NCBI GenBank assembly: GCA_020137815.1
Contig: CM035357.1
Coordinates: 1,178,001-1,242,000, forward strand
Reading direction: 5' to 3'
Length of the DNA stretch: 64,000 nucleotides
Source: Hormiphora californensis
Lineage: Eukaryota > Animalia > Ctenophora
In this document: one piece after another, positions 3,210-42,500 of the stretch
How the letters are laid out: each line of letters opens with the position of its first letter
How positions within the stretch are numbered: the stretch's first letter is position 1
The notes under the pieces: generated by a model
Seen by the model: the letters and a program-made list of their open reading frames with translations, nothing else
Databases searched by the model: none
What the model was told of the DNA's origin: nothing
Program-made: the position numbers and the translations under genes

Positions 3210-3765
3210 ATATGTTACTTTTTAATTGGATCTAACAACTACTAATATATCACGTGCCTATCCATGATTCACCACTTACCAGACCCACACCAGGCCATTG
3301 CATTACCTCCATTTATTGATCCATTACCCTCTAACTTCCACCCCATCATTGCCCATGTAGCCCCACTATGTCCACGCTGCTCCTAAGGATCTGTATAGGG
3401 TGCTACACCAGAAACTGCCTTCCCAAGAGATGGACGACAATCTATATGACATCTGTAATCCGCTGATGATGCATGGTAAAGATCACATACACACTTCACA
3501 TACACACACAGGTTATACACCTCGTCACAAGGTACTGTTAAAATTATCCAGTTCAAATTACATTTTATTGTTATCATTATCAAGATCAAGGACCAAGAAT
3601 CAATTTAAATATTGCCGAGGTTTTATCACAGTAACTAGGTCCAAGATGCAGGTCGAGAACAACAATTTTAAAAATGAATTATTATGATGATGTTCGAGTT
3701 GGATGAATAAATTTCAGGCCGAGCTCGTCGCTCGACCTTGTAGTTTCACATTTCTCTTGAAGTTG

Positions 3766-3830
3766 TTTTCCATCCGGGCACTGTTTTCATGTTCACGGAG
3801 TCTGTGTAATAGGGGGCATCCCGTCTCTCC
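3766..3830 (-). pseudogene. Penelope-like GIY-YIG endonuclease scrap
   Basis: Minus strand reads GETGCPLLHRLREHENSARME, matching the G-x-T-x-R/x-L-x-x-R-x-x-EH motif. Confidence 0.6.
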
Positions 3831-3955
3831 AGGAAATAAATTTCAGTTTACTGTTATACTGATAGTGTTACAGGGAATTGGTCCTCAGGGAGAAATCTAT
3901 GGAGAAATGGAATTTCTCTGGAGTAGGTTACAAATCAAAACACGAGTGTTTTCAA

Positions 3956-4745
3956 GGGGGGGTGCCGGCCAATAATTAATGAGGATGAGGTCTTGTCCAG
4001 CGTTTTTCGAATTAATGAGGGCCCTCAAAAATCCTCAAAAATCCTCAAAAATCCTCAATAATCCTCAACAATTATTTTATAGTTTTTACAAAAATTTTGA
4101 CGATTACCCATATTATTGGGCATACACATTCCTTAATAGGAGTAAAACAGTTAGAAAATTTTCCCAGATACCCTGGTGATGGCCCTAAAAACATCCTCAA
4201 AAGTCCTCAAAATGAGGCGAAATCGTCAATGTAAATATGGGGTAAATTTGTGCTGCCTCCACTCTGGGACACTTTTTTTTAAATTTTGAAAAATTTATAA
4301 ATGATTTATAAATGATTTCTAAAAATTTTCTAGACATTTATCTTACTAGGCAACAAAATCGTTGATTTTTGGGACAAAGTTGGCCGCATATTTGACTGAA
4401 AATCGTATTCATCTAAAATTTTGAAAATTTGGGCACCGGGGTCTTGTCAAGCATGTGAAGTTAATAACTTTGCTAAAAGAAAGCAGTGCTTCAAGTGTGG
4501 GAAGCCAAAGAGCACAGGCAAGAGCACTTGAATTGATAATCAGTGCATTTTATATGTACCTCTAAAATATAATCTATTATTGTTTTTTATCAGGCATTTG
4601 CTGTGTTTATGTTTAAATAGAACGAATAATTTTTGAGGATTTTTGAGGATTTTTGAGGATTTTTGAGGGCTTGTCCAGCAAATAATAAATGAGGATTTTT
4701 GAGGTGACCTCAAAAATCCTCATAAATTCCGGCCGGAACCCCCCC
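3956..4745. mobile_element. Non-autonomous TIR element with 8-bp TSD and AAAATCCTC subterminal repeats
   Basis: TIR GGGGGGGT(G/T)CCGGCC; TSD GTTTTCAA (3948-3955/4746-4753); empty site in the duplicate copy at ~5597-5604. Confidence 0.92.
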
Positions 4746-38426: not shown

Positions 38427-38478
38427 ACTGAAGACCAACTTTCGTCGAGAATCTTGATGATCTCCTCATCAGTTAAAT
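38427..38478 (-). ncRNA. Degenerate hammerhead ribozyme
   Basis: CUGAUGA-G-GAGAUC-aucaa-GAUUCUC-GAC-GAAA-GUUG-GUC; stems I and III imperfect. Confidence 0.45.
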
Positions 38479-39309
38479 ATTATATGTACTTATTATCCTG
38501 ACTCATTGACATTCTGCTATAAAATGGCATGGTGTATCAAAGTATCAAAATCATATAATACAATAAAATCTATTTATTTATCAGGGTTAAGAGGGAAATT
38601 GCCCTGATGCTTTGCGGATTATGCCTAGCTGCCGCCGCAGTAGGGCATTCTCCCTCTTAACCCTGATAAGGATTACTCCTACATCGGTTTGGGTCCCATT
38701 GGACTGGTATGTGGGTGGGGGACTGTGCCTGGGAGTTCTGTGGCACTTGATCAACTTCCATCTGTGGAGATAGAGAGATGAGGCTTGTCGCTGCTGTCGC
38801 TGTCTATCACGCATTTGTTGTCGTTGTTCGTCAGTCATACTTGCTACCTGTTGACGTCTCCTTTCATTCTTCAGAATAGGGACCAGGTAAATAGTAGGCA
38901 GAGTGCATATAGGGCTCAGAATAGGGAACAAGAGTACTCTTTTTTTGGAAGAACAATTAAAAATATATACACAATATTGGTATTTACAATGGCAATTTAC
39001 AATTTAATATTATTAAAAGCATAGGTAAAATCCTCAACATTATAATCTTTCATTGTCCTGCTGCTTCTTGACCCACGTATACATAAAAGGCTCTATTTTA
39101 AAATGGTAAAGGAGAGTCTTACTCTTAAAAAGCTGATAACGTCATTAAAACTCTCATTCTTCTTATTACAAATCTTGTTACATAAAAGTTTTAAAACCGT
39201 ACTCTTGGGAAAAGATAGAACAAACTTATAATGTCATGTTGTACAACATCTCGCAAGAAGAAAAAAAACCGTACTCTCATCACAATGCTCCTTCATAAAT
39301 ACAACTACA

Positions 39310-39530
39310 ACAGAAACTTCCATTTGTGCCTACACTTGGCTAATATAACACTGTTAGTAACAGTTCCGATCTAACATTCAGAAGCCTTGGCTCCTTCGAG
39401 TTCTGCAAATCCCATATCTTTTCCGACAGCCTTGTATCTCCTCTTCTTCCGGGCATTCCTCAGGCTGGCCATGTGCCCATAGTACCGCTGTTTAAAAGTC
39501 CCCTCGGTCATTCGTATGTAGTGGAATTGG
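39310..39530 (-). pseudogene. Penelope-like GIY-YIG fragment, internally deleted
   Basis: HYIRMTEGTFKQRYYGHMASLRN / TRLSEKIWDLQN / LLNVRSEL / LAKCRHKWKFLL. Confidence 0.85.
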
Positions 39531-42500
39531 TCTCCATTATCCACTGTAATTGAATTTTCTCATAATATATTGTGTAATTTGTCTGTGACTCAGATCCGAA
39601 AGCTAACATCCATAGCTCTTTCTCAGTCATGTCACCGAGTTTTGCCATTATTTTCTCTCCGGAAACGAAACTGATAAATTGACCACGTGTACAATGCTTC
39701 AGCTTAAGTTATATTCTCGTAGACACACACCGTTATCATATTTTTTGTTGTCACTATCATTATTCCACAGTTTTATTCCATATAATACCTCACCATGAAG
39801 GAGGGCTGTCCGTCCAAGGGCGAGATGTCACCCCAATTCATCTTAAGGACGTTACAACTCAATTCTCAGCAAAAAATAACTGGAAAATAATAATAAGTTG
39901 CATGAAACTGGATAATTCCACCCCAAGTAAATTCCATCTGTGTACCCCGAGTAGTGATACTCCATATTGAACATTGGTAGTATAATTGATAGTGTTGACA
40001 GATATATAGTGTGGGAACCTGTCTGCTTTATATTAAAATAAACAAGTTTCGCTAATAACCGGTTAATAAAGTATTTCAGTTTTATAATTCCCAATACTTT
40101 CAGGGCTCGAGGAGGCAGTATGGAAGCTACGTATGCGTATCACGGAGCAGCGAGACGCTCTTCTTCTCTTCAGCGGAACAGTTCATTGTCCTCTGTCTCT
40201 AGAGGGGCTAGTGCAGTGCCCTGTTTGTCAGCGTGCAACTCGGAAGGGTAGGTTGTTTGTTGAATGATGGGGTTACTCAACAATAAGTTGTGGGGTTTTA
40301 TGACTATCAAACCAGATCTTCCTTTTTATTTCTATTACTTCATGCTTGAGAGATCAAGTATTATTTCATCAGAATCTATTGATTCAATATAGATTATGGC
40401 GAAATAATGTTCGAAATTTAAGTCATCCAAAAAAATATTGAGTCATTGATAGTTATTGTTCATCAGTAATTGATCCTGACATCGAATCAAATAATTTATT
40501 ATGTGTGGTAATTAAGCGGTACGTTATAATTCTAACAATCTAATTCTAACAATCTAATATAAGTTCCAACACAGAACGTGAACTTTATATGTTATGTCTC
40601 TCCAGCTAGGCCAATTACATTGTACCTATGTTTTAATTACAAAACAAGAGTTATAATTCTCCTTTCGTCACTAGCTATGTCACTGCGTGTGATATCACAC
40701 TATACTATTAAGTGATCACTATAGTTAATAGGTTATCTCTCTAATCTTCTTCGTGTTGGTATTGTCGATATTTGATCATTGAATTAACATTTGGTCACTT
40801 TCAAGTTTCGATACACCAATAAATATTGGCAGGGTTCAAGGCCAGCTCATAGCTACCATTTCTTTTTGTTACTATTTGGAGTCTTTTTGTTACTATTTGG
40901 AGTCTTTTTGCACTAATGGCCATTATTTTAACCACGCCCTTTGATCATGGCTCTCTTTTTTTGTAGACAACTATAACATCTCTCTCAGAGTCATATATTC
41001 TCCCTTTCTTTTGACTACTATTTGACCTTTATTTTGTCCTTTCTCTCTCTCTCTCTCTCTCTTTCTCTCTCTCTCTTTCTTGGTCTTGCAGTGGTATAGT
41101 GCTCTCTCACCCTCTATCCCCTCTCTTTCTCTCCCTCTCTCTCTCTCCCTCTCTCTCTCTCTCACCCTTTATCCCCTCTCTTTCTCTCCCTCAATTTAAC
41201 TGGCTAAATTACTCTCTCTATTCGATAAGTGGTAGTATTATAGGCTCATGACTCTCGACGTGCTAGCAGTTGTTTTGACGTTTCGACATTATAGATCCGG
41301 CTTTGTTCAGATCTGTATGTTCGACTTTTATTGTTCAGATCTGTATGTTCGAAGAAACTTTTATTGGTAATCGATCGCTGCTGCTGCAGTAGAAATATTC
41401 TATAGCTACCACGACCCCCTCCCCCTGGTCGAGCTTGCCCTGGTGTGTGTGTAGCTATCGCAACCCCCTGGTGTGTGTAGCTATCTCGACCCCGGCCTCC
41501 CTGCATCTGGAGTACCCTGGTGTGTGTGATCACTGTTTCAAAGCTGTTTTGCAGCAGGTAAAGTGACTTTATTTTTAATTTTATTTTTAATCCATTACTT
41601 TATTTCGGATTTTTAATCCGTTCGTTTACCGCCAATATAACTGCTTTCATTGAAACTCCATGGAGTTACACAAATAAGTAATTATCGTGACTATCTATAT
41701 TTCCATCTCAATTAACAGTTGAGAAAGTCCTACTGAGTATTACTGAGGTCACTGACAGGATGAATTCGTTAGAAATTCTGCCTGTCACTCACTTCCCGTT
41801 ATCCAGTTTTCTCTCTCTCTCTCTCTCTCTCTCTCTCTCTCTCTCTCTCTCTCTCTCTCTCTCTCTCTCTCTCTCTCTCTTCCTCTCTCACACTGAAGTC
41901 TGACCTAACGCGATGTTAACTGGGAATTAAAATTATCATAAAATTTACTGATATATTACTGGTACCGTTGCGGTTCTAAACTCATAGCAGACAATATCTC
42001 GCCCATGTTTACTGTTTTCATCCCAATTTGCAGAACCGTATCTAAAATGTGGTATGTAGGGCGGGCAGGAAGAGGGGCTGTGGGGCCTGTGAAACATAAC
42101 TATTTTCGCCATTCCTGACCCCATTCCTAATTACGAACCAACACACTAATTACAGCTAGTGACACACACACACACACACATCTAACAAGTGCTACTACAG
42201 TGGTGAATGACTGGCCGTGGTTAAAAATACGTGCCTGCCCCCTCACTATCACCTCTAACTCTCTCTCTCTCTCTTTTTCTCTCTCTCTCACCCTCTCTCT
42301 CTCTCTCTCTCTCTCTCTCTCTCTCTCTCTCTCTCTCTCTCTCTCTCTCTCTCCCTCGTTATTTCTCTCTTCATACGTCATCACTGAGTCACATTGCTTT
42401 TTCGTTTAGTAGACTGTTTGTTTCCAGTTGTTTTCCTTAAAATTACGAGGAGAGAGAAGAGGGACAGTTTGAGAGAGGGAGATTCCGAGAGGGGGAGAAA

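Follow-up and report, generated by a model that had tools for sequence, protein, structure and literature searches.

Transposon archives that lie on one strand and are driven by a gene are already known from flies, mosquitoes, slugs, and mammals. Clusters for PIWI-interacting RNAs (piRNAs) located downstream of genes, termed piC-DoGs, have been described in the mouse, human, and hamster, together with a uni-strand cluster in a slug (Konstantinidou et al., PMC11615739), and van Lopik et al. used strand bias alone to predict clusters, which small RNAs subsequently confirmed (PMC10643416). In Nematostella, 402 of the 457 piRNA clusters are uni-stranded, and two PIWI genes, PbaPiwi1 and PbaPiwi2, are present in the ctenophore Pleurobrachia bachei (PMC5731801). 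Mnemiopsis makes piRNAs as well as small interfering RNAs of endogenous origin (endo-siRNAs) and has 1235 unique piRNA clusters by that paper's own definition (PMC6211395). In the present study, we analyzed a 64,000-nucleotide stretch of the genome of the ctenophore Hormiphora californensis (the window; contig CM035357.1, positions 1,178,001 to 1,242,000), in which scraps of many transposable elements (TEs) form a mosaic behind a thioredoxin-reductase-like gene (TXNRD) and face the minus strand almost without exception. We suggest, with a probability of approximately 0.55, that this mosaic is a uni-strand, piRNA-cluster-like locus that would be transcribed by read-through from the plus-strand genes in front of it.

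The strand bias of the mosaic is real, though not absolute. The sequence-only reading from which this analysis started had placed every recognizable TE piece on the minus strand, and this holds for all 15 firm pieces (E<=0.01, or identical at the DNA level to a piece that passes this cutoff, with duplicates left out), giving a two-sided p of approximately 6e-5 if the pieces are treated as independent, which they are not fully. The firm families are Penelope-like, CRE-like long interspersed nuclear element (LINE), Helitron, hAT-like, RNase H, and C2H2, and the DNA transposons share the bias, with five firm Helitron pieces and one of the hAT type. A strand-blind Pfam scan of 385 stop-to-stop open reading frames (ORFs) of at least 40 amino acids in 2560-43100 (205 plus, 180 minus), which left out ORFs lying at least 70% inside masks of miniature inverted-repeat transposable elements (MITEs) or satellites, gave four TE-type matches on the minus strand (DUF4371, Helitron_like_N, zf-C2H2, and RNase_H; Table 1) and none on the plus strand, none of them at the gathering score. 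When 68 proteins, namely, 6 CRE-like reverse transcriptases (RTs), 23 Helitron helicases, and 39 others, several with GIY-YIG and RT domains, were searched against both strands with tblastn, all nine loci at E<1e-3 were on the minus strand, counting both 25471 and 28478, a single piece and what is probably its false copy; since the library had been retrieved by minus-strand queries, this is a symmetric strand test for the CRE, Helitron, and Penelope families only. Searches of both strands revealed no comparable set of plus-strand fragments. With profiles built from the retrieved relatives, further Helitron pieces were recognized at 24822 and 19574; the reversed-sequence controls for these profiles reached E 0.3 at best. 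Motifs typical of TEs, searched in six frames with a list that leans toward the minus strand because it was composed after the minus-strand translations had been read, occurred 40 times on the minus strand (4.8±2.0 in block shuffles, at most 10 in 100 of them) and 7 times on the plus strand (4.9±2.3).

Regarding hammerhead ribozymes, of which six to nine had been proposed, all six matches of the core pattern in the window are on the minus strand and within the mosaic, where 1.04 were expected; Rfam Hammerhead_1 matched 38216-38260 only (E 0.015, below gathering), and isolated minimum-free-energy folds of the pattern matches lacked a clean three-stem shape. The bias is not absolute because of one weak, decayed Helitron Rep-like relic, the only TE candidate on the plus strand, which is duplicated at 5059-5160. 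TE coding scraps were not found in the flank 45000-62900 (0 minus and 4 plus motif matches), and neither Pfam nor the motifs matched an RT core or a long terminal repeat (LTR) element in the mosaic.

The pieces with this common polarity represent more than one event. CRE copy 2 and CRE copy 3 each carry a poly(A) tail, with target-site duplications (TSDs) of 13 and 8 bp, respectively; among random end-pairs, 0 of 300 reached at least 12 bp and 6 of 300 at least 8 bp. With their own TSDs, these copies are ordinary 5'-truncated insertions that occurred independently and still both face the minus strand. Two of the three CRE pieces accordingly depart from the earlier description of the scraps as lacking termini, whereas the direct abutting of unrelated neighbors was seen as described. 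Butt joints at the positions where sample S2 skips parts of the mosaic are without homology, and since deletions create such joints, terminus-less neighbors need no special capture. Insertion and deletion account for most of the scraps, so that the capture of mRNA or cDNA fragments is not needed as their main source. It does fit one piece, the Helitron helicase fragment 33033-33541, which lies within an RNase H region whose halves share codon phase, is bordered by a 10-bp direct repeat at 33023/33542, and has loose contig ends at its borders (33023 and 33536). Helitrons are not known to make TSDs, and a repeat-flanked Helitron 3' piece therefore makes the trans retro-copying of Helitron RNA possible. 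Judging from its flanks, this fragment may be captured RNA; the insertion of a short, non-autonomous derivative at a site of microhomology would give a similar picture. MITEs split older scraps, such as CRE copy 1, which three of them interrupt (6730-6905, 6978-7214, and 7249-8129), and are therefore later.

Two DNA runs, X3 and X5, were compared with the window as short-read contigs over 26.7 kb, with 11301-24300 lying outside. X5 represents sample S2, and the relation of X3 to the source sample of the assembly is uncertain, with 12 of 369 letters differing from the window in one TXNRD contig. X3 contigs of 302-837 bp spanning unrelated neighbors had depths of 33-59 in block B, and those in block A had depths of 40-99 (TXNRD contigs, 56-68); one of 682 bp (depth 48.5) bridges the Helitron_like_N and C2H2 pieces. 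The summed X3 depth was 326-1577 in ten MITE-free or nearly MITE-free bins, versus approximately 55 for single-copy sequence, and an X5 contig of depth 1113 matches a CRE piece at 245 of 251 letters and continues beyond it. Since contig depth is a rough guide and not a copy number, we conclude no more from these values than that the junctions are unique and that many of the scraps are related to sequences at other genomic sites. Scraps 8315-8982 and 30985-32098 are near single-copy, their sources being rare or gone.

A comparison across individuals had been proposed as a check for fragment turnover, and skipped forms were seen in S2. Among the 15 S2 joints shown of the 34 found, nine skip non-MITE mosaic (46 to 4460 bp), and one represents an allele without a palindromic MITE at its TTAA repeat. 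The support for each joint is a single contig per run, the short side of which spans only 25-30 letters in some cases, and the joint 33131>33490 possibly derives from a paralogous copy; the long joints link unrelated pieces in window order and are, thus, most simply alleles of this locus. The segment 25398-28408 is probably a false duplication, an assembly error from error-rich long reads: it is an indel-ridden copy of 28409-29416 together with MITE copies, with 31 single-base gaps relative to copy 2, an X5 contig joins 25397 directly to 28409, and short-read contigs fit the second copy only, among them the 837-bp X3 contig, which differs from it at 2 positions and aligns without gaps. A Helitron piece previously counted separately at 25495 falls inside this segment.

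The mosaic, which had been described as a single 36-kb block, is split in two by a conserved gene for a protein of 208 amino acids. This ORF had been regarded as an unassigned plus-strand item of the mosaic; judging from its relatives, it is a host gene conserved in ctenophores. The relatives are one P. bachei record (96% identity with 78% covered) and two ENA contigs (93 and 79%) only, and they mark the host as a Pleurobrachia-like ctenophore. An RNA-run contig covers 10524-10748 (depth 14) in the same run as the spliced TXNRD mRNA, and the gene has single-copy depth in both DNA samples. In the model of its protein, a single long helix is accompanied by an acidic tail that is disordered (predicted template-modeling score, pTM, 0.34); no relative was found in viral_contigs or metagenome_contigs, no Pfam family matched significantly, and the C-terminal tail of the P. 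bachei relative was unmatched in the window. Each of the two blocks is situated directly downstream of a plus-strand gene with an RNA-run contig, TXNRD for block A and the 208-amino acid gene for block B. In block A, 30 of 30 bins were covered by X3 and X5 contigs. The mosaic span includes approximately 7.1 kb of palindromic MITEs and 2.3 kb of satellite, neither of which can be oriented, leaving approximately 23 kb informative.

Considering that independent insertions of retrotransposons and DNA transposons are all antisense, a filter acting on a plus-strand transcript is needed. In the model that we propose, RNA polymerase II would read past the 3' end of TXNRD and/or the 208-amino acid gene and produce a long plus-strand RNA, the antisense counterpart of Penelope, CRE, Helitron, and hAT sequences, among others. 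Cleavage of this RNA would yield small RNAs that are bound by PIWI and silence active copies of related elements. Newly arriving elements would land in either orientation, and those inserted antisense would be retained as sources of guides; such insertions would also place neither a self-cleaving hammerhead nor a poly(A) end of their own on the plus transcript. Frequent internal deletions would then trim the insertions to scraps of 30-500 bp that abut unrelated pieces. Selection for antisense guides would explain the polarity and, in addition, why coding scraps of many families have accumulated here, whereas the 18-kb flank has none. The layout expected of a uni-strand cluster, as suggested earlier, was observed: antisense bias, a position behind plus-strand genes, unique junctions, relatives elsewhere, and variation between samples. 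The RNA runs, X8 and X13, of which one is an oligo-dT metatranscriptome and the other a small run whose RNA type is a guess, are shallow and unstranded. X8 had no contig on coding scraps, which is uninformative either way at its depth; its six records on 24301-41000 are four MITE matches and two partial matches of 31-37 nucleotides, and the 13 records of X13 are confined to one MITE bin. A broader proposal, that the archive consists mainly of Penelope, CRE, and DNA-transposon scraps, at least some of them retro-copied from the mRNAs of other transposons, and that its architecture dates from the first animals or has re-arisen, is tentative.

Several points weigh against a piRNA-cluster-like locus. 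The plus precursor, the strand of transcription, and the small RNAs are predicted parts of the model, and endo-siRNAs, not piRNAs, are the main class in Mnemiopsis (PMC6211395). The probable plus-strand Helitron relic is located at the very start of the mosaic, and our strand counts apply to this window only. A family-agnostic test of amino-acid composition assigned 142 of 210 windows to the minus strand; however, 135 were assigned to it after base shuffling, and the test therefore adds nothing beyond base skew. AATAAA is over-represented on the plus strand (25 versus 14.1±3.9 in shuffles; 17 versus 23.3±5.0 on the minus strand), with no sign that poly(A) signals were purged, and this excess may merely mirror TE codons on the minus strand. 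Structural variation is not peculiar to the mosaic: the flank 40454-41000, with an X5 depth of 41, is covered as thinly as any scrap, and indels are abundant in the non-coding DNA of Hormiphora across the genome (PMC8527503).

Among other explanations, the mosaic may lie inside a long plus-strand intron or non-coding transcript, for example, one from a far 5' exon of the voltage-gated potassium channel (Kv) gene with the 208-amino acid gene nested in it, from which sense insertions were purged and no silencing RNAs were made. TXNRD, the 208-amino acid gene, and Kv are all on the plus strand, nested intronic genes are common in this family (2357 in Hormiphora; PMC8527503), and hammerheads and LINE poly(A) tails would be harmful in the sense orientation within a host transcript. 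However, internal coding pieces of Helitron and hAT elements carry no such signals and are nevertheless antisense, AATAAA is not depleted on the plus strand, and purging alone leaves unexplained why scraps of many families gathered here and not in the flank; we regard this explanation as unlikely. A different class of small RNA, either endo-siRNAs or the ctenophore 25-mers, arising through pairing with TE mRNAs or through the fold-back of MITEs, is quite unlikely. Endo-siRNAs map to transposons in Mnemiopsis, in which they dominate (PMC6211395), and approximately 7 kb of near-perfect palindromes are available in the span, whereas siRNAs derived from hairpins require no strand bias of coding scraps and MITEs are common in the flank too.

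The remaining two explanations derive the mosaic from a few events or from one. Reverse transcription with serial template jumping, at a break or an old chromosome end as in Terminons, would lay down pieces with one polarity in few events, and the one-orientation Penelope pieces, hammerheads, Rep, and coiled-coil ORFs recall those elements (PMC6431247); the Helitron 3' piece with its flanking repeat also speaks for this explanation. It is poorly reconciled with CRE copies 2 and 3, which were separate insertions, or with the 17 isolated short direct repeats of at least 12 bp (1.8 in base shuffles, a lenient control). Nor does the locus appear to be a former chromosome end, as had been considered: none of the 73 Tandem Repeats Finder rows in 2500-43500 is a telomeric array, genes lie inside the mosaic and on both sides of it, and no RT core was found; this explanation is highly unlikely. 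That the mosaic is one large, cargo-carrying Helitron-like element present in several copies is extremely improbable and largely refuted over the 26.7 kb compared. At least five firm Helitron pieces are present, and Helitrons reach 39 kb with captured fragments (PMC6431247). Nevertheless, contigs spanning the junctions have single-copy depth while the scraps have relatives elsewhere, which argues against a single cargo element recurring colinearly, and the Helitron pieces belong to different families, with the same helicase C-terminus repeated three times and a conserved host gene interrupting the block. A piRNA-cluster-like locus filled by separate insertions is the reading that we retain with the probability given above.

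Table 1. Features of the window, with positions counted from its first nucleotide.
Feature	Position	Strand	Evidence or remark
TXNRD-like gene, 3' part	1340-3058	+	Pfam Pyr_redox_2 / Pyr_redox_dim
Block A	3130-10024	−	directly behind TXNRD; ~4.8 kb without MITEs
Helitron Rep-like relic, decayed	3286-3477	+	tblastn E 0.035, 12/32 identical to P0014; hidden Markov model (HMM) E 0.12; no Pfam match
Penelope-like GIY-YIG C-terminal piece	3762-3842	−	79% to P0040 (GIY-YIG-bearing), E 4.8e-8
Penelope	6637	−	motif only
CRE-like LINE 3' piece, copy 1	6715-8180	−	88-98% DNA identity to copies 2 and 3
hAT-type transposase piece	8179-8493	−	Pfam DUF4371 E 1.3e-5, read through one stop
RNase H C-terminal piece	9545-9660	−	Pfam RNase_H E 0.049 (weak), GNERAD motif
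208-amino acid gene, intronless, coiled-coil	10358-10984	+	protein relatives, RNA-run contig
Block B	11946-~40300	−	behind 208-amino acid gene; ends ~3 kb before + strand Kv gene; right edge approximate
hAT	13769	−	motif only
Hammerhead core pattern	14148-14174, 14905, 25374, 29480, 38164, 38229	−	pattern match
Penelope-like GIY-YIG piece	18111-18245	−	motif only (YVGMT..TFKTR); no profile match
Helitron PIF1 helicase piece	19560-19790	−	Pfam PIF1 E 0.084 (weak), GDFRQ motif
Block B spans crossed by X3 contigs	24390-24867, 28473-29309, 30950-31637, 36914-37215, 37712-38169		X3 contigs
Helitron N-terminal piece	24822-25073	−	purpose-built HMM E 6e-3
Helitron helicase C-terminal piece	28439-28618	−	E 3.8e-8
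CMC/EnSpm-like transposase piece	29008-29433	−	motifs only; no Pfam match
Helitron_like_N piece	31075-31248	−	Pfam E 0.0014
C2H2 finger	31366-31644	−	Pfam zf-C2H2 E 1.6e-4
Non-LTR RNase H region	32890-33886	−	Pfam RNase_H E 0.0018; RNase H at 33865 by motif only
Helitron helicase 3' piece within RNase H region	33033-33541	−	tblastn E 5.8e-17
CRE-like LINE 3' end, copy 2	34933-35338	−	62% to RT protein P0002, E 2e-32
Helitron helicase C-terminal piece	35427-35705	−	E 9e-13
Three Penelope-like pieces and two hammerheads	36847-37079, 37517-37870, 38258-38377 (span 36847-38377)	−	tblastn, pattern
CRE-like LINE 3' end, copy 3	38942-39198	−	tblastn, poly(A), TSD
Penelope-like GIY-YIG piece	39374-39559	−	motif only
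LINE RT	63.4-64.0 kb	−	within window, outside mosaic

The features are listed in Table 1. We take DUF4371 to be linked to hAT elements, and the LINE pieces are presumed to belong to the CRE clade from their domain layout, with no tree built. Regarding the individual pieces named in the sequence-only reading, the Penelope calls were recovered by search at 3762-3842 and 36847-38377 and by motif only at 18185 and 39511, as was a further piece at 6637, while those at 8515 and 12215 were unsupported by any search; a focused GIY-YIG profile recovered three pieces only. The APE domain placed at 30955 was matched by no search including Pfam, and searches of the PDB with the APE and RNase H N-terminal pieces yielded nothing meaningful. 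The CMC transposase placed at 29030 was found at 29133 as a motif with no Pfam match, and the additional hAT and RNase H calls (13769 and 33865) are also motif matches.

Other observations were made within the mosaic. Through a tandem duplication, 3130-4814 / 4813-5665, the Helitron relic of the plus strand, a Penelope end, and the AATAAA that comes first after the TXNRD stop codon (at ~3204, plus strand) are present twice, and contigs cover both copies. An A20 run on the plus strand at 13908-13927 is a possible tail of a sense retro-insertion; it has no convincing TSD and is adjacent to a hAT-like motif on the minus strand. In the middle of block B, a 474-bp satellite is repeated four times at 21941-23847 and followed by a 131-bp repeat present three times at 23858-24257. 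A near-perfect palindromic 1-kb MITE with a TTAA duplication and GG..CC ends, which we take to be Kolobok-like, is present at 26732-27731, 27965-28409, and 35838-36832 and is missing from one S2 allele. Rfam matches to miRNA families were rejected because they are MITE palindromes and below the gathering score. The segments 33918-34147 and 34456-34776 represent a family whose depth is high (1577 in an X3 bin); it has an ORF1-like frame on the minus strand, and an inverted repeat inside it could give rise to a hairpin RNA. Related minus-strand pieces at 25245-25364 and 31554-31676, the first in a bin of high contig depth, share an HWITLV motif and are presumably from an Ulp1-like protease.

The gene content of the window comprises TXNRD and Kv (from ~43.3 kb) on the plus strand and CDC50 and ELL on the minus strand. 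An X8 contig (depth 16) joins the TXNRD exons 1346-1487, 1722-1833, 1960-2101, 2213-2307, and 2510-3058. The name TXNRD follows from our interpretation of the C-terminus of the predicted protein: the stop codon TAA (2578-2580) is preceded by an in-frame TGA, and 2563-2580 on the plus strand would encode Asp-Cys-Sec(TGA)-Ser-stop, with Sec denoting selenocysteine. The usual ending of TXNRD is Gly-Cys-Sec-Gly. Behind the gene, a stem of the form ATGA..AA..GA at ~2638-2685 resembles a selenocysteine insertion sequence; it folded no better than shuffles (z -0.08) and had no Rfam match. The Kv coding sequence shifts frame at 44324-44366 (plus strand), where two overlapping ORFs both have Ion_trans matches, which is likely to be due to an assembly indel, and Rfam K_chan_RES matched 44606-44719 weakly (E 0.0013, below gathering). 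Two paralogous small plus-strand genes without a Pfam match, at 54685-54782 and 56460-56557, have a signal-peptide-like MIKWCLVFVVAIV start, and a small element at 59113-59321 has 40-bp inverted ends and (CCCTAA)n-like repeats.

If small RNAs map to this locus, its defense layout would date to the base of animals, and a compact locus (~23 kb informative) that varies between samples would be available for following how TE memory is gained and lost. Otherwise, the locus would represent a clean case of extreme orientation filtering without piRNAs, making strand bias a weaker predictor of clusters. A literature search revealed no study of such a locus in a ctenophore; most subscription papers, and supplements that may contain cluster coordinates, were outside its scope. 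In the accessible parts of the reports on Nematostella and Mnemiopsis clusters, a multi-family archive of antisense scraps behind a ctenophore gene is not described (PMC5731801; PMC6211395).

Among described systems, piC-DoGs similarly have dense antisense transposon fragments that begin right behind a host gene and extend for tens of kb; they consist of LINE-1 and endogenous retrovirus (ERV) sequences with demonstrated read-through and piRNAs, (PMC11615739), whereas the present locus, for which both are predictions, consists of Penelope, CRE, Helitron, and hAT scraps and has a second gene inside the block. Mosquito read-through core clusters also carry antisense foreign fragments downstream of conserved genes and are enriched in non-retroviral viral elements (Qu et al., bioRxiv 10.1101/2022.08.22.504762), whereas none of the pieces in the present mosaic was identified as viral. 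One-strand TE remnants are shared with flamenco and flam-like clusters, which are specific to Gypsy/ERV elements, extend over hundreds of kb, and are transcribed from a promoter of their own (van Lopik et al., PMC10643416); the present scraps are far shorter and gave no LTR match, and the locus is not flamenco in the strict sense because antisense Gypsy/ERV elements do not dominate it. Bdelloid Terminons resemble it as chains with Penelope-type, GIY-YIG, Rep, and coiled-coil ORFs and hammerheads; however, they are attached to telomeres, punctuated by telomeric repeats, and contain Athena-type RT ORFs, none of which was seen here (PMC6431247). The insertion-plus-deletion turnover of Drosophila clusters matches the S2 skips (bioRxiv 10.1101/2021.08.20.457083). 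Taken together with these systems, the kind of locus is a known one, and its occurrence in the ctenophore lineage and its Penelope, CRE, and Helitron content are new.

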